52,860 bases of DNA, from IMG/VR virus record IMGVR_UViG_3300044984_001420, positions 1 through 52,860 of that record. One strand, 5' to 3'. The notes beneath the pieces were generated by a model that was not told the origin of the DNA, made no database searches, and saw nothing but the letters and a program-made list of their open reading frames with translations. Below are positions 5,400 to 21,086 of the stretch, piece by piece. The position numbers were made by a program, and so were the translations under genes. Position 1 is the stretch's first letter, and every line of letters starts with the position of its first letter. Origin of the DNA: a virus (taxonomy: Duplodnaviria > Caudoviricetes).

Positions 5400-5530
5400 T
5401 GGGATGGAATGGGGCACAAGATTATGTTCGCTTAACGAATTGTGTTGAGTGTGACACGGAAGCACAACTTACCGACAGTCTTTGCCACGGTTGCCGAGTC
5501 GCTATGGGTTATGAAAATGAGGAGGAATGA
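5399..5530 (+). CDS. 43-aa CxxC microprotein (not in ORF track)
   Basis: RBS AAGGAG; TGATG overlap; CVEC...CHGC. Confidence 0.55.
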   Translation: MGWNGAQDYVRLTNCVECDTEAQLTDSLCHGCRVAMGYENEEE

Positions 5531-6036
5531 TGAAATTAGGGTTTGATTTATCGACTCCGCAGGGAGCGCTGGAGTTTGCGAATTATGTCCACAAGGATCA
5601 GGTGGACAAAATCGGTGTTCCTTACATTTATCACGTTTCTCGTGTTGGAACCTCTTTGTGGAGGTTTGGTGATGAGTTTGTGATTGCTGGTTTTCTGCAT
5701 GACGTTGTCGAGGACACGGATTACTCGTTGGAGGATCTTTCTGCGATGGGTGCCAGTGATGATGTTGTTTGTGCGGTGGAGTCTGTCACGAAAACGACGT
5801 CTGGAGCCTCTCTCGCAGAGTATGAGGCGAGTGTTCGTAGGGCGATGGATGATCTGATCGGCAGGTTTGTTAAGGCTGCTGATGTGTCTGATAATGGCTC
5901 GCGTGTTGATGATATTCCGTGGGGTTTCTTGCGGTCGAAGATGGCTAAAAAGTATGCGATGGCTGAGCGGGTGATTGCTGAGTACATTCCGGGTTATCGG
6001 CTTGGTTGTGTGTTGGGCCCGCTGCAAGATGCCTAA
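5527..6036 (+). CDS. RelA/SpoT-type HD hydrolase (small alarmone hydrolase-like)
   Basis: A..FA...H.DQVDK.G.PYI.H..RV, AGFLHDVVEDT, V..VTK, VK.AD..DN. Confidence 0.9.
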   Translation: MMKLGFDLSTPQGALEFANYVHKDQVDKIGVPYIYHVSRVGTSLWRFGDEFVIAGFLHDVVEDTDYSLEDLSAMGASDDVVCAVESVTKTTSGASLAEYEASVRRAMDDLIGRFVKAADVSDNGSRVDDIPWGFLRSKMAKKYAMAERVIAEYIPGYRLGCVLGPLQDA

Positions 6037-7034: not shown

Positions 7035-7199
7035 ATGGAGAATCACGAGACCGGGGTTCTTGCTGACATGAGCCCGCTGCAACAATGGGCGACTCAGTTG
7101 CATGAAATATATATTTCTATGCTGCAAGCAGGATTTGCCAGTGCGGAGGCTCTGACACTTATCGCTGGGATCACCCGGCAAGTTGACGACGACGAGTAA
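7035..7199 (+). CDS. 54-aa hypothetical protein (not in ORF track)
   Basis: MENHETG...ATQLHEIYISMLQAGF...EAL; fills the gap before the portal. Confidence 0.6.
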   Translation: MENHETGVLADMSPLQQWATQLHEIYISMLQAGFASAEALTLIAGITRQVDDDE

Positions 7200-7209
7200 T
7201 GGGAGACAT

Positions 7210-8688
7210 ATGGCCCGCGTAGATATGCAAGAACTTGGCACCACTGGACTAAAACGAACCAGTGGGTTTGTTTACGATGAATTCCTTACACGGCTCCAAG
7301 GCATCCAAGGCATCAAAACATATCGGGAGATGTCCGACAACGATCCTGTTATTGGGGCGATTCTTTACGCCATCGAGAAAGTGATCACACGTCTGGAATG
7401 GCGAGTCGACCCCTACACGGATAAAACTTCAGATGGCGACAGTGAAACACTCGACATCGAAAACGCACAATTTATTGAATCATGCCTAAACGATATGAGT
7501 GACACATGGGATTCGACACTCTCACAAATCCTGTCCATGTGCATTTACGGTTTCTCGTTCCATGAAATTGTTTACAAGCAAAGAGTTTCACCTGATAATA
7601 AGGATGCTTCGAAGAGATCCAAGTTCACTGATGGTAAAATTGGTTGGCGTAAATGGTCCATCCGTGGACAGGAAACACTTTACCTTTGGACCTTTGATGA
7701 CAAAGGTGGCATCCAAGGGATGCAACAAGTTGACCCCTACACAGGTCATGGCCGCATCGATATCCCTATCGAGAAGGCTTTATTGTTCCGCACCACTGCC
7801 GCGAAAAACAACCCAGAGGGGCGTAGCCTGTTAAGGAACGCCTACAGGCCGTGGTGGTTCAAACGTCGTATCGAAGAAATTGAGGCAATCGGTATTGAGC
7901 GGGATCTTGCCGGATTACCCATCGCCTATGTGCCACCGGAATATTTATCAAGCACAGCAAGCAATGACCAACAGGTCGTGTTGGCTGCCATCAAACAAAT
8001 CGTCACTTCGATTAAACGCAACGAAAACGAAGGTATCGTTTTCCCACAAGTCTTTGATGATTCAGGGAAACCACTGTTCGACTTGAAACTTATGAGTAGC
8101 GGTGGATCACGCCAATTCGATACCGATAAAGTGATCACGCGCCTAGATCAACGTATCGCCATGTCAGTGCTATCCGACTTTATTCTCCTTGGAAATGACC
8201 GCGTAGGATCTTTCTCTCTCGGTGCAACCAAAATGGATCTGTGGTCAATGTCAGTTGATTCGATAGCAAAAACTATTGCCGACACAGTCAACCAATACGC
8301 TATTCCACGTTTGATGCGTTTGAATGGCATGACTGTAGATCGGGCACCTACGCTGCAGTACAGCGAAGTGGCACACATTGATCTTGGCGAAATCGCTGAC
8401 TTTGTTTCGAAGATGACAACCGCTGGAGTGTTGGCACCGGATCCTGCTTTGGAAGATCACTTGCGTGAACTAGCCGGATTACCTCCAGCGAATCACAACA
8501 TTGAAGACACGGGCACAGATGTTATGTCTGCTGAGGATGCGAAAACTTTACTGGGACTACCACCACAGCAACGCCTTGTTGCTGAAAGAACAGGTATTGT
8601 TCCTGATGGTCCTGCAGCCGCTTCGGAGGAAACACCATTTGGTGGCGACGCTCCCGAGCAATCTGGTGCTGACGAACCAGAGGAGTAA
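7210..8688 (+). CDS. portal protein (Mu gp29/DUF935-like)
   Basis: YGFSFHEIVY, NPEGRSLLR..Y..W.FK, IERDLAG.P, GSFSLG; directly upstream of MuF; ATG 7210 follows GGGAG. Confidence 0.92.
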   Translation: MARVDMQELGTTGLKRTSGFVYDEFLTRLQGIQGIKTYREMSDNDPVIGAILYAIEKVITRLEWRVDPYTDKTSDGDSETLDIENAQFIESCLNDMSDTWDSTLSQILSMCIYGFSFHEIVYKQRVSPDNKDASKRSKFTDGKIGWRKWSIRGQETLYLWTFDDKGGIQGMQQVDPYTGHGRIDIPIEKALLFRTTAAKNNPEGRSLLRNAYRPWWFKRRIEEIEAIGIERDLAGLPIAYVPPEYLSSTASNDQQVVLAAIKQIVTSIKRNENEGIVFPQVFDDSGKPLFDLKLMSSGGSRQFDTDKVITRLDQRIAMSVLSDFILLGNDRVGSFSLGATKMDLWSMSVDSIAKTIADTVNQYAIPRLMRLNGMTVDRAPTLQYSEVAHIDLGEIADFVSKMTTAGVLAPDPALEDHLRELAGLPPANHNIEDTGTDVMSAEDAKTLLGLPPQQRLVAERTGIVPDGPAAASEETPFGGDAPEQSGADEPEE

Positions 8689-8690
8689 AC

Positions 8691-9800
8691 GTGGCTTTGA
8701 CATTTGGTGGTCGTCGCCGGAAACGTCCCGGCGGTGGTCCTCCTTCTACTCCTTTAACTCCGCTGGAGCAGCGTCTCACCGACCGACTTGTCGCGGTGTT
8801 AAATTTGTTGTCACAGAGTCTTAAAGTCAGTGAGTACGAAACTGCTATCAACGAGTTGTCACCCGAATTGTTGGAACAACTTTTGGCTGAAAATAATATT
8901 GATCAAATTAGTTCTTTGATTGAAGAAACACTTTCGGGCATTGTGATGTCTGGAGCCTTGAACGAGGCTAAAAACATTATCAGAACATCCCCGAGGATCG
9001 GCCAGAATCCATTCAATGCCCTCGAATATGGTGGGCAGGTACTCCCTAGTGGAATCATTTTACCGAGGCCGCTAATCTCGTTACCGCCTGATGTTGAGTT
9101 TCTTATCGAAAACCCTGTCGAAAGAATGTTTAAGTTCGTTAACCAAAAGGCAGCGGATTACGCCCGTTTACGCTCAGCACAACTGGTGACCTCCATCTCC
9201 GAATCGAACAGGCTTGCGATACGTCAAGTAATCTCGACGGCTTTCACTGGCACTCGCACAGTTGATCAAACTGCTAGGTCTTTACGCGACATTGTTGGGT
9301 TGCATCCTCGTTGGGCTCGCGCAGTGGAAACATTTAAGGAAACAAACACGACTCGGCTTATCCGGGACGGAATGAGTACAGAGAGCGCTGCTCTCAAGGC
9401 TGAAGAGATGACTCAGAAATATCGGAAGAAACTTATTCGTCGCCGTGCTGAAATGATTGCTCGCACAGAGATACAACAGGCACAGAATTTTGGCAGGGAA
9501 GCATCGTGGCAGGCTAGTGATCGCGCTGGTCTCATTGATCCAAGGGCTGAGAAAGAATGGCGCACAGCACCTCGGGGGAGCCGTTACGGGCCACCTTGTG
9601 ACTTATGCACGGAGTTAAGTGGGAAGCGTGTTCCTTGGAACGGTTCATTCTCGAACGGTTACTCAATGCCACCCGCGCATCCTAATTGTCGTTGCACTGC
9701 GGTTCTTGTTCCTCCGACTCGTGGGCTTACTGGTTTACCATCTCAAGATATGGGTTCGTGGATAGATAAGTTGGATCAACTTGAAGCGGAAGAGGTTTAG
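8691..9800 (+). CDS. MuF/SPP1 gp7-like head morphogenesis protein
   Basis: RAEMIARTE, K.W.T, C..C and PPAHPNCRC; no C-terminal toxin extension. Confidence 0.92.
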   Translation: MALTFGGRRRKRPGGGPPSTPLTPLEQRLTDRLVAVLNLLSQSLKVSEYETAINELSPELLEQLLAENNIDQISSLIEETLSGIVMSGALNEAKNIIRTSPRIGQNPFNALEYGGQVLPSGIILPRPLISLPPDVEFLIENPVERMFKFVNQKAADYARLRSAQLVTSISESNRLAIRQVISTAFTGTRTVDQTARSLRDIVGLHPRWARAVETFKETNTTRLIRDGMSTESAALKAEEMTQKYRKKLIRRRAEMIARTEIQQAQNFGREASWQASDRAGLIDPRAEKEWRTAPRGSRYGPPCDLCTELSGKRVPWNGSFSNGYSMPPAHPNCRCTAVLVPPTRGLTGLPSQDMGSWIDKLDQLEAEEV

Positions 9801-9802
9801 TT

Positions 9803-11572
9803 ATGGTTGAGATTCTTTTTGCTCCGGGGCTACGACCCGTTCTAAAGCATGGAAGTCATAACCAGCAAAACCATGCAGCAAAAACAGGTAGTGAAGACAC
9901 AGGTTCAGGTTCTCCAAAATTAACAATTATGGGTAAGAACGATGGCACGAATAAGTTTTTTAATGAAGATACTCGTGTAGTTCGCCATCAGCCAGATGGA
10001 AAAGAACCTACGGATTATGTTTTATATGCTCAAAAAAATTTTGTAGTCGCAATAGTTAAACCTAAAGACGGAACGACAATCAACGGATATAGCGAAGGCG
10101 GAACAAATAAAGGCGAAATTGGGCATTTAGATATTACTGGCGCTGGAAGTAATCCTTGGCGTAGTTCTGCTAAAAACGATAACAAAGCAACAATTACTGA
10201 AGTTGCTGTAGGTAAAGCGCACCAACGCCGAGGCTTGGCTTCAGCAATGCTTCGTTTCCATAGAGATAAATTTCCTGAGTTAGATGTGCAACATTCTGAT
10301 GCTCAATTACCAGACGGAAAAGCGTGGGCTGAAGTTGCCAAGCATGGAAGTCATGATCAAAAAACTCATGCAGGAAGAATCGGAGTTCACACCGGGCGGC
10401 GTACTGATTCTAAAAATCAACAGAAACTTGATCGAAACCTCATTTATGACGCCACAACAATGTCTGCTCTTCCGGCCCCGTTACGGAAAAAGATTGAAGG
10501 CTCCCTTGAGGTTTTGGGTGTCACGCAAAAACAGATGGAAGACAATGTGCAAGCGGTGCTTGATAGAGCGAAGGCCGCTAATGATCCACCTGAGGGTAGA
10601 GATTGGTACGAACAAGCCAATAATGCAGCGCAGTCAATATCGGATAAGTATGGTTTAAGCAGGACTGAGACGGCGGGCATGATTGCAGCGATGAGTCCGC
10701 AGCAACCGTGGGGTGACAATGTTACGGCAGCGGAATATGTGGCAAAATCGTTGTCCGAAAAGCACGCTGTGCAGGTTGACGATTTGATGGGTCAGTCATT
10801 GACAAAAGGGGTTGGGCAGCCTGCTAAGCCTGTCACGAAAACAATGTATGAGTGGGCGCAGGCCGAAACTGATGGAGTTACAGGCACCCGCAAAATGGAC
10901 GGGCAAACGCACAAGATGCCGGATCCCGATGAACTGCGTGGGAAAACTGTTGACCAGTTAGACCCTTATGTAGCGGCAGCGATTATCAAAGCACACGCTC
11001 AGATGGGTTATCGGGTCGCTGGGGTTGGAGATAATGTTGATGGTCAGCAATTAAAAACTATTGACGATCTTACGGGTCTCCCGGCTCCCGTGAAATTTAC
11101 TTGCGGGGTTCACCACATGGGCCGCGCCGTCAGAGTCGCGCAAGGCGAAAGTCCAGATGAGGTTTTGAACGGCCACAAAGTTCGATCCTTCTACAACAAC
11201 ATTTCCGGCGACAAGTCCGTTGGCACTTACTCGGACGATGTCACCGTAGATTCGCATGCTTTTAGTGTGGCGATGGGCGTAAAGTATGGTTCGGGTTCCG
11301 TTGAGTACGGATATTTCGCTGGATCTAGTTGGCCTAACCCGGCGTCAACGAAAGAAAACAGGTTACCGCCGTTGCACAGTGCGGTTGGCAGCGCGACGCC
11401 CGGAGTTGCTGGATCGTATGCCGCATTCGCTGACGCCTATCGAGAGGTTGGTCGGCGTAACGGTTTGTCGGCTCGCGAGGTGCAATCGATTACTTGGGTT
11501 CAGTGGCGGAAAGATAACCCTGATCAAACAAGGGGTGGGCAGATGGCTGCAATGGAGGTAGAAAATGAGTGA
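9803..11572 (+). CDS. modular polyprotein 1: tag-GNAT acetyltransferase / tag-glycosylase-like domain
   Basis: KHGSHNQQNH and KHGSHDQKTH tags; GNAT motif A (VAVGKAHQRRGLASAML); second domain WY...IAAMSPQ..W..N...KVRSFY.NI...VTVDSHA...VQSITW. Confidence 0.75.
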   Translation: MVEILFAPGLRPVLKHGSHNQQNHAAKTGSEDTGSGSPKLTIMGKNDGTNKFFNEDTRVVRHQPDGKEPTDYVLYAQKNFVVAIVKPKDGTTINGYSEGGTNKGEIGHLDITGAGSNPWRSSAKNDNKATITEVAVGKAHQRRGLASAMLRFHRDKFPELDVQHSDAQLPDGKAWAEVAKHGSHDQKTHAGRIGVHTGRRTDSKNQQKLDRNLIYDATTMSALPAPLRKKIEGSLEVLGVTQKQMEDNVQAVLDRAKAANDPPEGRDWYEQANNAAQSISDKYGLSRTETAGMIAAMSPQQPWGDNVTAAEYVAKSLSEKHAVQVDDLMGQSLTKGVGQPAKPVTKTMYEWAQAETDGVTGTRKMDGQTHKMPDPDELRGKTVDQLDPYVAAAIIKAHAQMGYRVAGVGDNVDGQQLKTIDDLTGLPAPVKFTCGVHHMGRAVRVAQGESPDEVLNGHKVRSFYNNISGDKSVGTYSDDVTVDSHAFSVAMGVKYGSGSVEYGYFAGSSWPNPASTKENRLPPLHSAVGSATPGVAGSYAAFADAYREVGRRNGLSAREVQSITWVQWRKDNPDQTRGGQMAAMEVENE

Positions 11573-13052
11573 TGTTCGGATTTCTCCCAATACGGATCCT
11601 GATGAACTTGGGGATCTTGTTGACCCGTGGGATGCGTGGCTGAATGGTGATATTGCAACGGAAGACCTCTCCGATGATTTGCAGAAATATGCTTTAGAGT
11701 TCACAGATTCCACTTCTATGACTTCGCTTGTTTCTGAGCCTGTTGTTATTAAGTTTCAGGCTGGACTTAAACCGATTTTGAAGCATCTTCCGGGACAACA
11801 TGATCAGTCTTCTCACGGGGGCGGCGGTGGACAGTTATCACTCCGAGGTGTTGGTGGTGCTGGTGCTTCAGGTGAATTTTCTGAGTGGGGTGATCGGGCT
11901 CCTGAGTTGATTGCTGCACGAGGTATTGGTCCTAGTCGAGATGAGTTAGAAGCGGCTATTGCCCGTAAGGTTTCTCGTCAAGAAGTGCGCGAAAGTATCG
12001 AATCAACTTTTAGTTACGATATCAAAACTGAAACTGATATTAGAATGCTTAGCAATGCACCGCGTGATATGGATGAAAAACAACGCGCCATCCTAAGAGA
12101 TGAATTGTACGAACGGGCTGTTGATAGATACGTTGAACAGTACGGGTTTGAGGCGCGAAGGCGTCTAATAGATAGAAATAGTACCGATATAGATCTGTCT
12201 TCTATGGAAGATGTTTACAGTGTTACGCATGAAGGTGTGACTCGTAATGGTGTGTCCGTTAGTTTACGTTCTGAAGTTACTTCCGTTGAAAAGTATGGAT
12301 CAAATTCTTTTGATGTGCAAGGACCGATTATAGATAATAAGACTGGAAGTGGGGTTGGTCGATTTAAAAGAAGTTTTGGTGCTGATGAAAATGGAAACCT
12401 GTCAGTCTCACACGAATTCTTAGAGATAAGTGATGACTATCAAGGATCAGGTTTCGCTAAAACATTTAACAGGCAGGCTGAAAATTTCTACATCACCCGT
12501 GGTATCAACGATGTTTATGTTCACGCCGCTTTAGATGGTGGCGGTTACGCTTGGGCTTCTGCAGGATTCGATTGGGATCGCGGAAATCTAAATCAATCGG
12601 TCAATAACATTTCACGCAGGATGGATACTTACTTAACGGATAAACCTAATATTCCAAGGACGATCAGAGCCGATATTCAATCAACTCAAACAAGGTTGAA
12701 GTCACTTCCCGTGGGCAGCCCTAACTATCCGACACCTAAAGAGATCTCTGACCTTGGTCGTATTGAAGGGGTAAATAATTGGCCGGGTAAAGAAATCATG
12801 CGTGGATCTAACTGGTACGGCAAGAAAACTTTACGTCCTGAGGGTGCGCGGGTTTCTACGACTCAAGCCGCTAAGGAATCTGAGAGGGCTCAGCAGCGGG
12901 AAATTCAACAGGAGCGTAATCGTGAGGCTGCTACGAGAGCGCCCGGTGTAGGACAGTTGACGATGGATAACAATTTTCTGGATGGGGCATTACGGCAGTC
13001 TCCTGCTTACCAAACCCCATTAATTGAACCTATCCCCGGTATGGTACAATGA
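11565..13052 (+). CDS. modular polyprotein 2: acidic N-domain / tag-GNAT acetyltransferase
   Basis: KHLPGQHDQSSH tag; ISDDYQGSGFAKTF...GGYAWASAGFDW GNAT signature. Confidence 0.75.
   Translation: MSDVRISPNTDPDELGDLVDPWDAWLNGDIATEDLSDDLQKYALEFTDSTSMTSLVSEPVVIKFQAGLKPILKHLPGQHDQSSHGGGGGQLSLRGVGGAGASGEFSEWGDRAPELIAARGIGPSRDELEAAIARKVSRQEVRESIESTFSYDIKTETDIRMLSNAPRDMDEKQRAILRDELYERAVDRYVEQYGFEARRRLIDRNSTDIDLSSMEDVYSVTHEGVTRNGVSVSLRSEVTSVEKYGSNSFDVQGPIIDNKTGSGVGRFKRSFGADENGNLSVSHEFLEISDDYQGSGFAKTFNRQAENFYITRGINDVYVHAALDGGGYAWASAGFDWDRGNLNQSVNNISRRMDTYLTDKPNIPRTIRADIQSTQTRLKSLPVGSPNYPTPKEISDLGRIEGVNNWPGKEIMRGSNWYGKKTLRPEGARVSTTQAAKESERAQQREIQQERNREAATRAPGVGQLTMDNNFLDGALRQSPAYQTPLIEPIPGMVQ
13042..13050 (+). 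promoter_or_regulatory. extended -10 promoter (TGgTACAAT)
   Basis: Upstream of RBS GGGAGG and ATG 13069. Confidence 0.6.
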
Positions 13053-13068
13053 TTGTGGGAGGAAAACT

Positions 13069-13311
13069 ATGAACAGAGAACAAGAATTAGCGCGAGTTTC
13101 CGACGTCAACGAAAAATGGCTACGGACGTTTAAAGACACACCAAACTTCGATCCAGACAATCCAACACTGGAGCAATCCGATGAAGAGTACCGTTTAACA
13201 AAAGAAGAGTTTGGTCAAGTTGGTGTGGGAGAGTTCGCAGAGTCCGTAGCGAAAATGAGTGAAGAAGAATTAGCGGAATTGCGTAAATCGCCAATTTATC
13301 AAGATATATAG
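13069..13311 (+). CDS. small acidic protein, candidate partner/immunity of the upstream GNAT
   Basis: Own promoter and RBS; Glu/Asp-rich. Confidence 0.65.
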   Translation: MNREQELARVSDVNEKWLRTFKDTPNFDPDNPTLEQSDEEYRLTKEEFGQVGVGEFAESVAKMSEEELAELRKSPIYQDI

Positions 13312-13370: not shown

Positions 13371-16343
13371 GTGAACAAGACTGATACACGACTAGCAGGT
13401 TTGAGCGATGCTCAACTAATTGCTACACACAATGGTCTCGACGATCAGGTATCAGCCGACGCTGCAATCATTGAAGCACACCATTTAGTGGCAATCGAAA
13501 TGTTGAAAAGAAACATTCCTCACGGTCACATTGATGATGCGTGGGTCGATGCTGTAGTCCTGATTGAAAAAGTTGCAGTCGACAGCCCTGAGGATATTGC
13601 TGCACCTGCAGGAATTGAGAAGGCGTGGTCTCAAGCCTTGGTTAAGGGCGGAACTGTTTCTGTTTTGTTGACTACCAATGGTTATGTTTTGAAGGCGGAC
13701 CCAACGGTATCCGACGTGCATGTCGATGCTGTCATGGGCAGTGGGCGTCGCCGTAAACCTCAGGCCAACATTTTTGATCTGCAAAAAACGATTAAGGAAG
13801 AAGACGGGAAATTCACCGTTTACTCGGAGGACGGTGCCCGGAAGTTTGGCACTTATGCGTCTTTAGAAGAGGCTGAGGCCCGTTTGCGGCAGATAGAGCG
13901 TTTCTCTAAGGCCGAGGGTTATTCGGTCCCTAGCGGGGTTCAGGAGGCTGCTAAGCGGGCTGTTGCGTGGATTCAAGATGGCAAGGCGGGCGATGGGTTC
14001 ACTAGCGTCGGTCGTAACAGGGCCAGTCAACTGGCTTCCGGTGGCGTGATTGGTCAGGCGACTCTGGTAAAGATGCGTGCCTATTTTGCACGTCACGGTA
14101 AGCAACGCGGGAATCATGATGCTCTGGTCGATGGTGAGCCAACACCGTGGAGGGTGGCGTGGGATGCGTGGGGCGGTGACGCTGGTAGGGCGTGGGTCAA
14201 CCGTGTTCTAGGTGCCGTGGAGAAGCGTGCTACTCCTGAGCCAATCATTGACTTGCATTTGAATCTTGAGAACCGGCAGCACGCGATTGACGAGTATTTG
14301 TACGGACCGATGAATCCTGATGAACCGGGCGACTATTGGGATCGTCTTGGTGAAGTGTGGGGGGTGTCTGGCGATGAGGCTTCGACGACCCGTTGCGGGA
14401 ATTGTGCGGCTTTCAATGTGAAGTCGGAGATCAAGGATGCAATGGGCGATGCGATTAGCGAGGAGGGCGAGGAGGTAGTTGATCTTGCGGATCTCGGTTA
14501 CTGCGAGTTGTTGCAGTTCAAGTGCGCTGGCAGTCGCTCGTGTTCCGTCTGGTTGACGGGTGGGCCGATTAGTGACGATTTTGAGGGCAGCGACGACGAA
14601 ATTGAGTTGCTGGAATCAATGGATGCTGAGGATTTTGCTGAGTTTGCTGCGTATGCTTATTTGGCTGATGAGATGGAAGAAGAATTTGAGAAGCGCGGTA
14701 ATCCTGAGGCTTTGCGGGACTACTGGCGTAAAGGCGGTAAAGGTAAGATCCCGTGGGGTGCCGGTGGTGATTTCACGGCTTGTGTCGCTGCAGTGGGTAA
14801 GTACATGTCGTCGGAGCAGGCTAAGGGCTATTGCGCTATTCGTCATCGTGAGGTCACTGGTATGTGGCCGGGTGATAAGAGGAATCGCACTAAGAAGTCC
14901 CGTGAGGCGACAGCGAAGTTCACCCTTCCCGGTGGTGCCACTTACGAATATAGCCTCCCAGTGGACTTCACAGGGGATTTAGAGACCATTTTGAAGCACG
15001 GTAGCCATGATCAGAAGGCTCACGCGGGCAAGGGTGGTGCTTCGGGTGATGTTGACCCAGAAATCGCCGCTTCAATTGTTGAACGTGTGCGGGCTAACGG
15101 CGGGTTAAGTGTCAACATGGTTGATGGTTCTGAGCCGCCAAGTGGTTACATGGTTGCTCGTGTTGGAGTTAAGGCAGCAATTGTTGATGCCGATGATTTT
15201 TATGACACTGAAAAAGGACCGGCTGCATTATCGTCTTTTATGAAGGACAATAAAGCCGAATTATCCGGGGGTGACTACCTCGGGGTATGGCACGATACTG
15301 ATGGGGGTAAGGTGTACCTCGACGTATCACAAAATGTTGCAAGCCGATCCACTGCTATACGGTTTGGTGAAGAAAGAAATCAACTCAGTATTTGGGATGT
15401 AGTAGAGGGAATGGAGATACCAACTGGTGGCACAGGAGAACTTGAAAAAGCAAAAGCCTTTAGAGGCGATCAAGTTGCCGGATCTGTCGAAGATGACGGA
15501 CGAGGAGATCGACGCTTACGCGAAAGAGATTTGGTTGAACTTCAGCCAGAAATAAATAAGCACCTAAAAGGTAAGCACGATCAGAGCAGTCACTCTCGTG
15601 GTGGAGGCAGAAGTGATACCACGGTTCAAAGTGGTGGCGCTGGGGCAGTCGAGTATGGCGGCTATAAATTAAATGCGCCTGACAATCCTGCCGGTGAGAC
15701 TGCAAAGCGCGGTGCCGATTCTATTGCCGCAGCAAAAAAAGAACGGGCTAAAGTTGCTTCTATTGAGCCAGAGATTACTCGGGACATGATTGATGTGGCG
15801 AACGCTAATGGTGCAAAAATGGATGGGCTTGATCAACGTTTAAAATCTGAGAAATCATTGGCCCGGAAAATAGATGATGAAAAAGATTCCGACTTTGATG
15901 GTGATGCAACAAAGACCGCTGAAAACATGTCTGACGTTGCTCGTTACACGATGACGTACAAAGACAGTGATTATGTTTCCGGTGCGAATCGAGTGGTTGA
16001 GGATTTGCGGGAAAAAGGCTATGAGATGCGTGTTAAAAATTATTGGCAAGATGGTGACCCGTATCAGGGCATCAACATCAGCGCGGTTCATCCAAACGGC
16101 ACTAAGTTTGAGTTGCAGTTACATACGCCAACGTCTCTTGATTTTAAGGAGCCTACGCACGCAAAGTATGACAAGTATCGTGAGTCAACTAGCCCTCAAG
16201 TTCGGTACAAGGAATACACCAGCATGAGGCGTATTGCTCGACAGATTCCAAAACCACCACCTCCTGATGGATTAAGTGCCATTGGTGATGCTAAGTTCCA
16301 GCCCTTTACCCCGACGCCTGAGTCAGCCCCTGTCGCCATATGA
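13371..16343 (+). CDS. modular polyprotein 3 (990 aa) ending in a RelA/SpoT-like nucleotidyltransferase domain
   Basis: At least 7 modules separated by x-x-K|A/R/H/T sites; two KH..HDQ..H tags; C-terminal RLKSEKSLARKI, DVARYT, VKNYW, YQGIN, FELQLHT. Confidence 0.8.
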   Translation: MNKTDTRLAGLSDAQLIATHNGLDDQVSADAAIIEAHHLVAIEMLKRNIPHGHIDDAWVDAVVLIEKVAVDSPEDIAAPAGIEKAWSQALVKGGTVSVLLTTNGYVLKADPTVSDVHVDAVMGSGRRRKPQANIFDLQKTIKEEDGKFTVYSEDGARKFGTYASLEEAEARLRQIERFSKAEGYSVPSGVQEAAKRAVAWIQDGKAGDGFTSVGRNRASQLASGGVIGQATLVKMRAYFARHGKQRGNHDALVDGEPTPWRVAWDAWGGDAGRAWVNRVLGAVEKRATPEPIIDLHLNLENRQHAIDEYLYGPMNPDEPGDYWDRLGEVWGVSGDEASTTRCGNCAAFNVKSEIKDAMGDAISEEGEEVVDLADLGYCELLQFKCAGSRSCSVWLTGGPISDDFEGSDDEIELLESMDAEDFAEFAAYAYLADEMEEEFEKRGNPEALRDYWRKGGKGKIPWGAGGDFTACVAAVGKYMSSEQAKGYCAIRHREVTGMWPGDKRNRTKKSREATAKFTLPGGATYEYSLPVDFTGDLETILKHGSHDQKAHAGKGGASGDVDPEIAASIVERVRANGGLSVNMVDGSEPPSGYMVARVGVKAAIVDADDFYDTEKGPAALSSFMKDNKAELSGGDYLGVWHDTDGGKVYLDVSQNVASRSTAIRFGEERNQLSIWDVVEGMEIPTGGTGELEKAKAFRGDQVAGSVEDDGRGDRRLRERDLVELQPEINKHLKGKHDQSSHSRGGGRSDTTVQSGGAGAVEYGGYKLNAPDNPAGETAKRGADSIAAAKKERAKVASIEPEITRDMIDVANANGAKMDGLDQRLKSEKSLARKIDDEKDSDFDGDATKTAENMSDVARYTMTYKDSDYVSGANRVVEDLREKGYEMRVKNYWQDGDPYQGINISAVHPNGTKFELQLHTPTSLDFKEPTHAKYDKYRESTSPQVRYKEYTSMRRIARQIPKPPPPDGLSAIGDAKFQPFTPTPESAPVAI
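15442..15555 (+). CDS. nested +1-frame 37-aa microprotein (putative)
   Basis: TTG start after AGGAG; MKKQKPLEAIKLPDLSKMTDEEIDAYAKEIWLNFSQK; stop lies just before the next KH tag. Confidence 0.45.
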   Translation: MKKQKPLEAIKLPDLSKMTDEEIDAYAKEIWLNFSQK

Positions 16344-16356
16344 ACATAACCCGGGT

Positions 16357-16365
16357 TGGTATAAT
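16357..16365 (+). promoter_or_regulatory. extended -10 promoter (TGgTATAAT)
   Basis: Perfect consensus upstream of RBS AGAAAGGA and ATG 16387. Confidence 0.7.
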
Positions 16366-16386
16366 GTCTTTAGAAAGGAATTGACG

Positions 16387-17013
16387 ATGGAAATACGATA
16401 TTTCGTAATGACAGATAAAGACGATCAACCGTTGACGCTTTTGCGTCTCAGAATTGATGACACAGCCGAAGAGTTGTATGAAGAAGAGTGGAAAAATGAT
16501 TGGCAAGAATCCAAACGGCTAATGCTGTACATCACTGACGGTGATCCCAGACTGATTGAGATAACAGAGACTGAGGCCCGTGAAACTTTTCCTTCAGCGT
16601 TTTCGGAAGCGACACTAATTTCGAAGGCTGTCGATGAACGCATGTTCACCCTTGGTCCTATGTATATTCCAAACGTGATGGATGCTCATAACGAGTGGAC
16701 GGATCCTGATGAGTTGCAAAAGGCTGTTTGGGATTATGTGCAAAAAGGTGATCGTCGGATTCGTTTGCAGCATGATCGGGATAAGATCGCTGGCGAGTTT
16801 GTTGAGATCATGACTTGGCCTTATGAGGTTGAGGTTCCTATGCTGATGAAAAACGCGACCGAGAAAAAACTTAAGTTCCCGGCTAACACTGTTTTTCTTG
16901 GGGTTGTTTGGGAGCCGTGGGCATGGAAGATGGTAAAGGACGGTAAACTTAGAGGATATTCGATTGGTGGTCGTGCTGAGAGACTCTTGGCGGATCTTCC
17001 TGATGAGGAGTGA
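16387..17013 (+). CDS. XkdF-like prohead serine protease with an extra acidic N-terminal domain
   Basis: K|AVDERMFTLGPMY.P...DAH...L.KA...RLQH...W.MVKDGKLRGYSIGG; the first ~75 aa are unrelated to the protease. Confidence 0.85.
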   Translation: MEIRYFVMTDKDDQPLTLLRLRIDDTAEELYEEEWKNDWQESKRLMLYITDGDPRLIEITETEARETFPSAFSEATLISKAVDERMFTLGPMYIPNVMDAHNEWTDPDELQKAVWDYVQKGDRRIRLQHDRDKIAGEFVEIMTWPYEVEVPMLMKNATEKKLKFPANTVFLGVVWEPWAWKMVKDGKLRGYSIGGRAERLLADLPDEE

Positions 17014-17333
17014 CAGTGTTTCTTTCTAACGATGACGGCAAGCCTTTAACTATTAAGCCACGGACGGTTGTGAAAGCGTCTTACAAGCAAGGCGATTTTG
17101 CTTCGTGGAATAGTAGCGGTGGTATGGCTCGTGGAACTGTTGAACGTATTCTCACTGAAGGCGTGTTGAATATTCCTGATAGCAGTTTCAAGATCAATGC
17201 TGAGGAAGATGATCCTGCTGTTTTGTTGCGCGTTTACCGTAAGTTCGGTGATGGTTGGCGTAAGACCCCTACTTTGGTTGGTCACAAGATGAGTACGTTG
17301 ACAAAGATTGAACCGTTGAAGATCGGTGAATAG
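17010..17333 (+). CDS. head-associated Tudor/SH3-like (DUF2945-like) protein
   Basis: K.GDFASWNSSGG.ARG.VERI...DPA.L.RVY...VGHKMSTL.KI. Confidence 0.65.
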   Translation: MTVFLSNDDGKPLTIKPRTVVKASYKQGDFASWNSSGGMARGTVERILTEGVLNIPDSSFKINAEEDDPAVLLRVYRKFGDGWRKTPTLVGHKMSTLTKIEPLKIGE

Positions 17334-20108: not shown

Positions 20109-21086
20109 ATGCCACAACCAACAATCAGCGACGTCCATATTGACGCGATTCTGACGAACATTTCTGTTGCATACATGCAAAAAGCAGAAAACATGATCGC
20201 AGATAAGGTCTTTCCGGTCGTCCCAGTTGATAAGAAGTCAAACAAATATTTTACTTATGACAAGAATGACTGGTTCCGTGACGAAGCACAGCGTCGCGCA
20301 CCGGGCACTGAGTCTGCTGGTGGCGGGTACAACCTGTCCACAACTACCTATTCGGCTGATGTTTTTGCATTCCACAAGGATGTAGACGATCAGACTCTTG
20401 CTAACGCTGATACGCCACTTAACCCGTTGCGTGAGGCTGCAGAGTTTGTGACAAGCCGTTTGCTTCTTCGCCGTGAGGTTCAGTTTATTTCTGACTTCAT
20501 GACGACTGGAGTTTGGGCAACTGACGCCACTGGTGTTAGCGGATCCCCAAGCAGTGGTGAATTCCGTCAGTGGAACGACTACACCAATTCAGATCCGATT
20601 GAGGATATTGAAGAAGCAAAAGAGGATATCCTTTCAACCACGGGTTACGAGGCCAATACTCTTGTTCTTGGTTATCAGTCGTTCCGCCAGTTGAAGAACC
20701 ATCCTGATGTTGTTGACCGCTACAAGTACACAACTTCAAGCGTGATCACTGAGGAAATGTTGGCACGCTTGTTTGGTGTTGATCGTATCCTCGTGGCAAA
20801 GTCAGTTCGGGCAACCAACAATGAAGGTCTCACTCCTGCTTACGGATTCAATTTCGGCAAGAGTGCATGTCTCCTCCACGTTGCACCAAATCCCGGTTTG
20901 ATGACACCTTCCGCTGGTTACATCTTTGCTTGGACCGGCGTTTCGGGTGGGCTTGGTTCCACTATCGGTACTTCACAGTTCCGTATGGAAAGCCTGCGTG
21001 CCGCTCGCATTGAGGCTGAGGTTGCCTTCGACAACAAAGTTGTTGCAAGCGATCTTGGTTATTTCTTTGCTAGTTGCGTGGCTTAA
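20109..21086 (+). CDS. major capsid protein
   Basis: HID..LTNISVAY...IADKVFP.VPV.K; strong RBS TAAGGAG; followed by a terminator. Confidence 0.92.
   Translation: MPQPTISDVHIDAILTNISVAYMQKAENMIADKVFPVVPVDKKSNKYFTYDKNDWFRDEAQRRAPGTESAGGGYNLSTTTYSADVFAFHKDVDDQTLANADTPLNPLREAAEFVTSRLLLRREVQFISDFMTTGVWATDATGVSGSPSSGEFRQWNDYTNSDPIEDIEEAKEDILSTTGYEANTLVLGYQSFRQLKNHPDVVDRYKYTTSSVITEEMLARLFGVDRILVAKSVRATNNEGLTPAYGFNFGKSACLLHVAPNPGLMTPSAGYIFAWTGVSGGLGSTIGTSQFRMESLRAARIEAEVAFDNKVVASDLGYFFASCVA

Follow-up and report, generated by a model that had tools for sequence, protein, structure and literature searches.

Toxin-bearing phage head proteins, in the form of MuF toxins and polyvalent proteins, are already known. 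Apk2 proteins, which are encoded by temperate phages, are toxins in which MuF is fused to a (p)ppApp synthetase; a Tis1-like immunity gene lies downstream, in some cases together with an Aph1 hydrolase (PMC10083569; PMC12226406). The Apk2 domains of these fusions between MuF and a RelA/SpoT homologue (RSH) are toxic in Escherichia coli (PMC12226406). In polyvalent phage proteins, which are head-associated and comprise several domains, modules of the RelA/SpoT and zeta-like kinase types have been reported (Iyer et al. 2017, PMC5512222); modules of both types in MuF and polyvalent proteins have already been described (PMC5512222; PMC5576092), and a small gene right after the toxin domain is the standard layout for immunity (PMC5576092). 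The exported alarmone synthetase SaEAS of Streptomyces albidoflavus (8VX3) makes (p)ppGpp as well as (p)ppApp and is very fast and highly toxic in the cytoplasm (PMC12691689). Here, we analyze a locus in a 52,860-bp window, which is the complete virus record of a tailed phage (IMG/VR record IMGVR_UViG_3300044984_001420). In this locus, a SaEAS-like RSH domain ends a protein of 990 amino acids (aa), and the next gene begins with a small domain (here referred to as the N-domain) that is fused to an XkdF-type prohead protease. We consider it likely that the RSH module is a head-carried toxin and that the N-domain is its cognate immunity domain, which in this lineage has been fused to the protease. 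The features of the locus are the following.

13371..16343, plus strand: 990-aa multi-module (polyvalent) head-associated protein; an open reading frame (ORF) with six PHROG families along its length.
15558..15608, plus strand: inter-module linker KHLKGKHDQSSHSRGGG preceding the toxin module; one of five H[DN]Q..H linkers.
15690..16340, plus strand: RelA/SpoT-type (SaEAS-like) pyrophosphokinase, the putative toxin domain, aa 774-990 (~215 aa); 8VX3 match and motifs.
16357..16365, plus strand: TGGTATAAT, an extended -10-like sequence in the 43-nucleotide (nt) gap.
16387..17013, plus strand: XkdF protease gene.
16387..16605, plus strand: N-domain, encoded in the protease gene as aa 1-73; proposed to give immunity to the RSH toxin.
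16606..16644, plus strand: linker, aa 74-86, with the invariant S79-K80.
16645..17013, plus strand: XkdF-type (Peptidase_S78_2) prohead protease domain, aa 87-208, plus the stop codon.

A RelA/SpoT-type synthetase domain with intact motifs forms the C-terminal module of the 990-aa protein. The original prediction, which was made by a model from the letters and their translations, had named four synthetase-type motifs in this module, and all of them are where it had placed them: RLKSEKSLARKI at aa 823-834 (nt 15837-15872), DVARY at aa 855-859, YQGIN at aa 898-902, and FELQLHT at aa 913-919. These contain the synthetase motif residues R.K...S...K, D..R, Y.G.N/H, and E.Q..T. The relationship is beyond chance: in a comparison of the 261-aa module with the Protein Data Bank (PDB), SaEAS (8VX3) was the closest solved relative at E 1.2e-15, and a profile of 14 sequences of phage relatives matched 8VX3 at E 9.6e-33. 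R823, K825, S829, K833, D855, R858, and Y859 as well as Y898, G900, N902, E914, Q916, H918, and T919 do not vary among the 14 relatives (14/14), and the SaEAS residue aligned with D855 is the one changed by D121A in the inactive construct used for crystallization (PMC12691689). The C-terminal end of the XopAD/skwp type III effector model was also matched (NCBIfam NF041399, E 7e-25; P0001 aa 39-244, window 15675-16290), far below the cut-off of that full-length model. PADLOC assigned no family to the toxin module, to the 990-aa protein, or to the protease, and the RSH profile matched neither Tas1 nor Apk in the PDB at E<=0.01.

The 990-aa protein is classified as polyvalent based on its several unrelated modules, which are separated by repeated linkers and are fused otherwise in other phages. 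Along its length, it matches phrog_2859 (aa 6-286), phrog_6439 (aa 436-509), phrog_17808 (aa 588-686), and phrog_7625/2841 (aa 768-958). Compared as a whole with Pfam, it has no family at E<=0.1 and, hence, no MuF domain of its own. In many other phages (L043, L046-L083), its N-terminal modules (13371-14600), i.e. an FTSVGR...WDAWGG domain and a Cys-rich CGNCAAF...GYC...FKCA domain, are fused directly to XkdF, and the gene boundaries in the head module are, therefore, fluid.

The protease gene starts with an ATG at 16387, 43 nt past the stop codon of the 990-aa ORF and with AGGA 7 nt upstream. As originally predicted, an acidic domain of ~75 aa is joined here to an XkdF protease: the first 73 aa contain 19 D/E versus 9 K/R, and Pfam Peptidase_S78_2 (XkdF, PF14550) matches aa 76-199 with 48.2 bits versus a cut-off of 24. 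The protease also matches PHROG head maturation protease families, has portal, MuF, scaffold-like, and major capsid genes as neighbors, and contains H129 and S192 (in GYSIGG), both of which are invariant in homologues. Its structural model has a predicted local distance difference test (pLDDT) score of 72 and gave weak matches to the herpesvirus proteases 1vzv and 1nkk (probability ~0.5). In the full-length model, aa 74-84 have a pLDDT below 50; they connect the N-domain, which spans aa 1-72, to the protease, which begins at aa 87. S79-K80, which had been singled out as an ISK|A site for release of the N-domain by autoproteolysis (K80, 16624-16626), is invariant in 38/38 and 40/40 homologues in two alignments. 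Because this pair is invariant and lies in a stretch of low pLDDT, it would be compatible with a processing site but does not demonstrate one; the Pfam XkdF match, with its start at aa 76, also covers this stretch. A perfect TGnTATAAT promoter had also been proposed for the protease gene. The sequence is indeed present, and TGGTATAAT is the sole TGNTATAAT in the genome, but its frequency is about that of chance (0.95 TGNTATAAT on average in shuffled genomes and at least one in 61 of 100 shuffles) and a -35/-10 promoter scan did not call it. Therefore, TGGTATAAT is unproven as a promoter.

N-domains evolve much faster than the protease domain. Among the 120 matches listed in a comparison of XkdF homologues, the protease domain is 66-100% identical and the N-terminal 70-100 aa have 26-81% identity to the window N-domain or are not detectably related to it. 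A search for XkdF loci with the single protein gave only 3 loci; using an alignment as the query instead, we took 83 XkdF loci from viral contigs and examined the upstream gene. By BLASTP, 19 of 71 upstream C-termini match the window RSH module (E 4e-34 to 3e-102), and Pfam Zeta_toxin is present on 18 of the 61 upstream C-termini scanned (E 4e-6 to 1e-28), all of them beside N-domains that are not of the window type; the remaining upstream genes end in MuF, or XkdF itself is the tail of a larger polyprotein. Hidden Markov models (HMMs) run over all loci gave 81 distinct XkdF domains with enough upstream DNA. The window-type N-domain is present on 39 of these, and an RSH domain lies upstream in 39/39. 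A Zeta domain lies upstream of 14; the N-domains of these are unrelated, and the window type is present in 0. The other 28 follow neither RSH nor Zeta and have no window-type N-domain. This 39/14/28 split, in which 0 of the 81 are discordant, shows that XkdF proteases do not generally carry the N-domain; had they done so, this would have spoken against the original prediction. Closely related proteases can, thus, differ in their N-domain: on a quick tree of the protease domain, the RSH and Zeta labels are interleaved and need 9-10 changes, at least 5 of which are forced by well-supported branches.

The coupling was also found starting from the N-domain and from the RSH domain. With the 79-aa domain as query, a sensitive search returned 34 representatives, including free-standing proteins of 72-90 aa as well as proteins in which the N-domain precedes modules that are ADP-ribosyltransferase (ART)-like or bear HExxH, to which it is connected via a KH..HDQ..H linker. 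Because the N-domain alignment has no conserved stretch, viral contigs were searched with an RSH alignment and the DNA downstream was scanned with the N-domain HMM. An N-domain match lies immediately downstream of RSH in 66 of the best 80 loci kept from 317 relatives. After identical copies had been removed and the earlier loci and the window had been added, there were 73 distinct RSH domains, and in 63 of them an N-domain begins at most 400 nt after RSH, either in a separate gene fused to XkdF (43 lineages), in frame as RSH-N-domain-XkdF (2 lineages), free-standing (13 lineages), or fused to other modules (5 lineages). Free-standing homologues after RelA-like domains, which the original prediction had thought worth looking for, are, thus, present in 13 of the 73 distinct RSH lineages. 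These free N-domains (70-99 aa) have their own start codons and unrelated genes downstream, most of the 12 copies inspected have a purine-rich Shine-Dalgarno-like sequence upstream, and they are genuine genes. In the reverse test, RSH lies directly upstream of 57 of 57 testable distinct N-domains, while 2 further N-domains are too near a contig end for this test. One arrangement separates the toxin from its usual place: at L028 5739-7608 (= L115 2067-3936), the order is Zeta, then a protease with another N-domain that carries an RSH toxin at its own C-terminus (other-N-domain-XkdF-RSH), and then a free window-type N-domain. Therefore, the N-domain follows the toxin and not the protease. We conclude that the genomic coupling between N-domain and RSH is strict, whether the N-domain is free or fused.

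In other phages (P0130, P0133, P0145, and P0132; L087-L090, L099, and L156), the N-domain is joined via a KH..HDQ..H linker to the next polyvalent protein; as read by eye from the sequence, three of the proteins listed have ART-like motifs and one has HExxH. Fusions of N-domain, linker, and ART-like module prompted us to consider the N-domain as a general capsid-targeting leader of protease and cargo. This candidate was dropped because every testable copy directly follows RSH.

As a further line of evidence, the N-domain was modeled alone and together with the RSH domain. AlphaFold2 predicts a small, beta-rich N-domain with short helices (pLDDT 91.2), the fold of which bears a weak resemblance to Tis1 (see below). 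The model of the complex has an interaction prediction score from aligned errors (ipSAE) of 0.87 (0.88, 0.86, and 0.87 in separate runs) versus 0.01 for the best control; the runs share at least 82% of contacts, and the pLDDT of the partner is at least 88. The mark applied to complexes is reached by 116/157 solved complexes and 2/215 mismatched pairs, counts that are only approximate here because our own alignments were used. The predicted interface includes the invariant domain residues D82, Y125, N129, E141, Y160, and R164, which are D855, Y898, N902, E914, Y933, and R937 of the 990-aa protein. The placement of the N-domain over the RSH active site with the catalytic D855 and E914 is, thus, supported by a model backed by controls, and complex modeling, a check envisaged in the original prediction, favors binding.

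The same design, in which an N-domain is present on XkdF after a toxin, recurs with a second toxin family, Zeta. Pfam Zeta_toxin is in the RSH slot in L010, L012, L016-L018, L028-L031, L033, L035, L036, L038-L042, L044, and L045, and in these phages the start of the XkdF gene encodes an acidic N-domain of 75-100 aa, of which there are several unrelated types. Such N-domains probably provide immunity specific to Zeta. Pfam searches with nine of them gave no family for seven and chance-level matches (E 0.16-0.19) for two, with no Epsilon antitoxin among these results.

The modules are separated by conspicuous linkers. The window holds five H[DN]Q..H linkers in three consecutive head genes (first codons of the cores at 9857, 10352, 11799, 15006, and 15576), and position 15558, from which the original prediction had started its region, is the first codon of the KHLKGKHDQSSH linker. 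Related loci contain 227 distinct linker copies with the consensus K-H-(x2 or x4, ending G-x)-H-D-Q-x-S/T-H-G-x-W-A, and across the window and related copies the last positions read G-x-W/G-A/G. The His-rich linker may be a processing site or a metal-binding site, and we regard the linker at 15558..15608 as a candidate processing site; more generally, the motif may mark processing sites of polyvalent proteins. A literature search for the linker motif found none. In the sister phages G007-G010, there are 13-18 partial matches each to the RSH profile, which are confined to the linker-bearing N-terminal part of the profile.

Around the locus, the gene order is portal, MuF-like gene, three multi-module genes, XkdF protease, scaffold-like, major capsid, and tail genes. 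The corresponding features, together with a hydrolase-like gene ahead of the portal, are the following.

5527..6036, plus strand: small alarmone hydrolase-like HD protein (Aph1-like); 7smg at E 1.3e-11, Pfam HD_4 30.3 bits versus 27.2.
7183..8688, plus strand: Mu-type portal protein; Pfam Portal_Mu E 7.8e-39, phrog_113.
8691..9800, plus strand: MuF / SPP1 gp7-like minor head protein, a separate gene; Pfam Phage_Mu_F 39.1 bits versus a cut-off of 29.6, PHROG head morphogenesis families.
9803..11572, 11565..13052, and 13371..16343: multi-module genes.
20109..21086: major capsid protein.
49.8-51.9 kb: terminase genes.

The best PDB match of the protein encoded at 5527..6036 is 7smg, annotated as '(p)ppApp hydrolase'. 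An Aph1-like homologue is present in 2/5 RSH-type and 1/5 Zeta-type phage records, and this Zeta-type record is without an RSH domain. Possibly, the hydrolase is a second layer of protection, or it has an unrelated function in host takeover; as a dedicated second immunity, it is weakened by this occurrence. The 589-aa head-module protein (9803-11572, plus strand) contains DUF7178 (E 3.4e-35) and two linker motifs as well as a stretch with weak, below-cut-off likeness to GNAT. At its start (11565-11800, plus strand), the 495-aa gene encodes an acidic domain of ~70 aa and then a KH..HDQ..H linker, and a small acidic ORF (13024-13311, plus strand) lies between the 495-aa and 990-aa genes. Because each directly follows the C-terminal module of the preceding gene, the acidic start of the 495-aa gene and the small ORF may be further immunity-like elements. 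An ORF at 17010-17333 (plus strand) with an Hva1_TUDOR domain (33 bits versus a cut-off of 24.1) overlaps the stop codon of the protease gene, and a homologue of this domain lies ahead of the XkdF polyprotein in L076. A scan of 33 window ORFs revealed neither an integrase nor a repressor. A DNA search of a phage collection with 13371-17013 gave no match, and profile searches of genome contigs with the RSH and XkdF alignments confirmed no relative.

Based on these data, our working model is that the RSH domain would be carried in the head and enter the next host with the DNA, where it would make (p)ppApp and/or (p)ppGpp from ATP at toxic rates. In the producing cell, the N-domain would sit across the synthetase active site (D855, E914) and block the toxin. 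We infer in this model the toxicity, the enzyme product, the packaging, and the purpose of the fusion. The original interpretation of the N-domain as an immunity domain has gained support from the 0/81 discordance, the free copies after RSH, and the complex model with its controls. In the window lineage, the immunity gene would have become fused to that of the XkdF prohead protease. Because free forms of the N-domain exist, the fusion is not needed for the pair; because it is the commonest form (45/63) and is mirrored by the Zeta cassette, we suggest that it gives an advantage. Specifically, it could result in equal amounts of toxin and immunity, tether the protease and the toxin protein during assembly and thus allow their co-loading, or, upon loss of the protease at maturation, eliminate the immunity domain along with it.

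A bolder version of this model, which we put forward as a tentative possibility and hold to be rather doubtful, is that the position between the protease and the last polyvalent head protein is a slot for an exchangeable cassette of toxin and immunity, with maturation arming the toxin. The slot is seen with RSH or Zeta toxins, and the immunity half on XkdF would serve as the safety catch. Throughout synthesis and loading of the two proteins, the toxin would stay capped and bound to the protease; after closure of the shell, the protease would cut the KH..HDQ..H linkers and then be lost together with the immunity domain, such that free toxin would exist only in the sealed capsid, from which it would be ejected into the next host.

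We also considered that the N-domain could mainly be a docking or loading adaptor, which binds the C-terminal module so that the protease and cargo enter the prohead together or, in a variant of this idea, holds the protease on its substrate for cutting of the KH..HDQ..H linkers, with inhibition of the enzyme being incidental. An adaptor would account for the prevalence of the XkdF fusion among the N-domain-bearing lineages (45/63), for the same pattern in Zeta-type modules with other N-domains, for the presence of XkdF and modules of the 990-aa protein in one polypeptide in other phages, and for the predicted binding. An adaptor for a protease leaves unexplained why 13/73 lineages keep the N-domain free (70-99 aa) with no protease attached; moreover, the predicted interface covers the catalytic D855 and E914, as expected of an inhibitor, and immunity is usually laid out in just this way, with a small gene directly following the toxin domain (PMC5576092). 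We consider an adaptor unlikely. According to a suggestion by Iyer et al. (2017), invasive elements may employ the RelA/SpoT domains of polyvalent proteins in nucleotide signaling (PMC5512222), which raises the idea of the RSH module as a moderate host-takeover enzyme that sets alarmone levels early, with the N-domain as a regulatory subunit or chaperone. That 10/73 RSH modules have no partner and that an alarmone hydrolase-like protein is also encoded would fit this idea, but SaEAS, the closest characterized relative, is highly toxic in the cytoplasm and very fast (PMC12691689), the MuF-RSH Apk2 domains are toxic in E. coli (PMC12226406), and in sister phages Zeta toxin domains fill the same slot. 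We find a takeover enzyme of this type improbable.

The view that the N-domain is an ordinary, fast-evolving pro-region of the protease, which co-varies with the upstream module by adjacency and joint exchange, draws on the spacing of ~40 nt between N-domain and upstream module with conserved sequence on both flanks and on the much faster evolution of N-domains compared to the protease domain. A pro-region is not expected to be free or on non-protease modules and still directly after RSH (18/63; P0130, P0133, P0145, and P0132 among the fusions), to follow an RSH domain located after XkdF as in L028/L115, or to be missing from the 28/81 XkdF domains without an adjacent toxin, nor does it call for the control-backed binding model; we regard it as very improbable.

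Returning to a head-carried RSH toxin with the N-domain as its cognate immunity, several observations count against this proposal. Pfam RelA_SpoT (PF04607) scores the module with 19.5 bits (E 0.0012; profile positions 1-108 of 113), which is below the cut-off of 27, and the RSH domains of two relatives likewise score below this cut-off; therefore, the RSH assignment is based on the PDB relative and the motifs. The likeness to Tis1, the immunity protein of the (p)ppApp synthetase Tas1, is weak: in a structure search by a method other than Foldseek over 48,161 representative chains, Tis1 (6ox6_B) had rank 3 with a Z score of 4.1 that is tied with unrelated rows (root mean square deviation 3.7, 60 residues aligned, 15% identity), and the nearest Atlas cluster with a Pfam family carries Tis1_ImmP at a weak score of 0.77. 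Foldseek found nothing at E<=0.001 for the N-domain model and the full-length model, the N-domain profile matched none of the PDB sequences, and Pfam Tis1_ImmP (PF24154) matched 0/19 family members, even at E<=10. Because Foldseek, the PDB profile, and Tis1_ImmP gave nothing and the Atlas lead is weak, we treat the N-domain as a new family that would work like Tis1 and not as a member of the Tis1 family. In addition, the result for the complex may partly reflect likeness to the solved Tas1-Tis1 complex. Regarding the coupling, 10/73 RSH domains have no N-domain after them and lie within a longer ORF, in which they are followed by a further 63 to 995 aa with other modules; therefore, immunity is either not obligatory for every RSH module or located elsewhere. 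The toxin domain and the N-domain are only ~40 nt apart, and recombination between the conserved KH..HDQ..H linker and the protease could, therefore, carry both; co-variation alone would be no proof of a functional link. The XkdF tree on which the toxin type switches is a quick tree of only 128 columns. Lastly, the Aph1-like hydrolase has no specific link to RSH-type phages.

The locus offers a concrete and testable answer to the question of how head toxins stay harmless in the producer and become active only after delivery, in that the neutralizing domain would be part of an enzyme that is active, and then discarded, during capsid maturation. If true, capsid maturation would be the arming step of a phage-delivered toxin. 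The locus would also define a new immunity family for SaEAS-like alarmone synthetases, which could aid the purification and study of these very toxic enzymes, and it supplies natural cognate and non-cognate pairs for studies of specificity.

In our literature search, we found no description of a prohead protease that is fused to an immunity domain; the term 'xkdf' has 0 hits in the main texts of PMC5576092 and PMC5512222, supplements apart, and the parts of PMC5512222 used here contain no Tis1-type immunity, immunity-protease fusion, or KH..HDQ..H linker. Apk2 and the window have in common a phage head-module protein with a C-terminal RSH domain, a small downstream partner element, and an Aph1-like HD hydrolase in the genome, and the relatives L057, L058, and L082 have the exact Apk2-like layout of MuF-RSH plus a small ORF. 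Unlike in Apk2, MuF is a separate gene in the window and the toxin domain forms the C-terminus of a polyvalent protein of 990 aa; the RSH domain resembles that of SaEAS, the putative immunity domain is fused to a prohead protease and has no Tis1_ImmP match, and the hydrolase is encoded ~9.5 kb from the toxin domain without specific linkage. SaEAS shares the motif set with the window domain, including Y.G.N, but has a Sec signal peptide and no immunity gene, whereas the window domain lacks a signal peptide, belongs to a head protein as one of its modules, and comes with a dedicated partner domain. The window pair can be likened to Tas1-Tis1 (6OX6), a type VI effector and its immunity protein in which an RSH toxin is neutralized by a protein of ~76 aa; it differs in having no detectable sequence similarity, in its presumed delivery by the phage head and not by a type VI secretion system, and in that the partner is fused to an assembly enzyme. 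Finally, in the toxic small alarmone synthetase (toxSAS) modules, such as FaRel/ATfaRel, PhRel of phage Phrann, and the fused CapRel, a toxic synthetase is combined with an adjacent or fused neutralizer (PMC7229694; PMC11782079). Such modules serve in defense or as toxin-antitoxin modules within one cell, whereas the putative toxin of the window is part of a polyprotein of the structural module and its candidate neutralizer is fused not to the toxin but to a different, essential protein.

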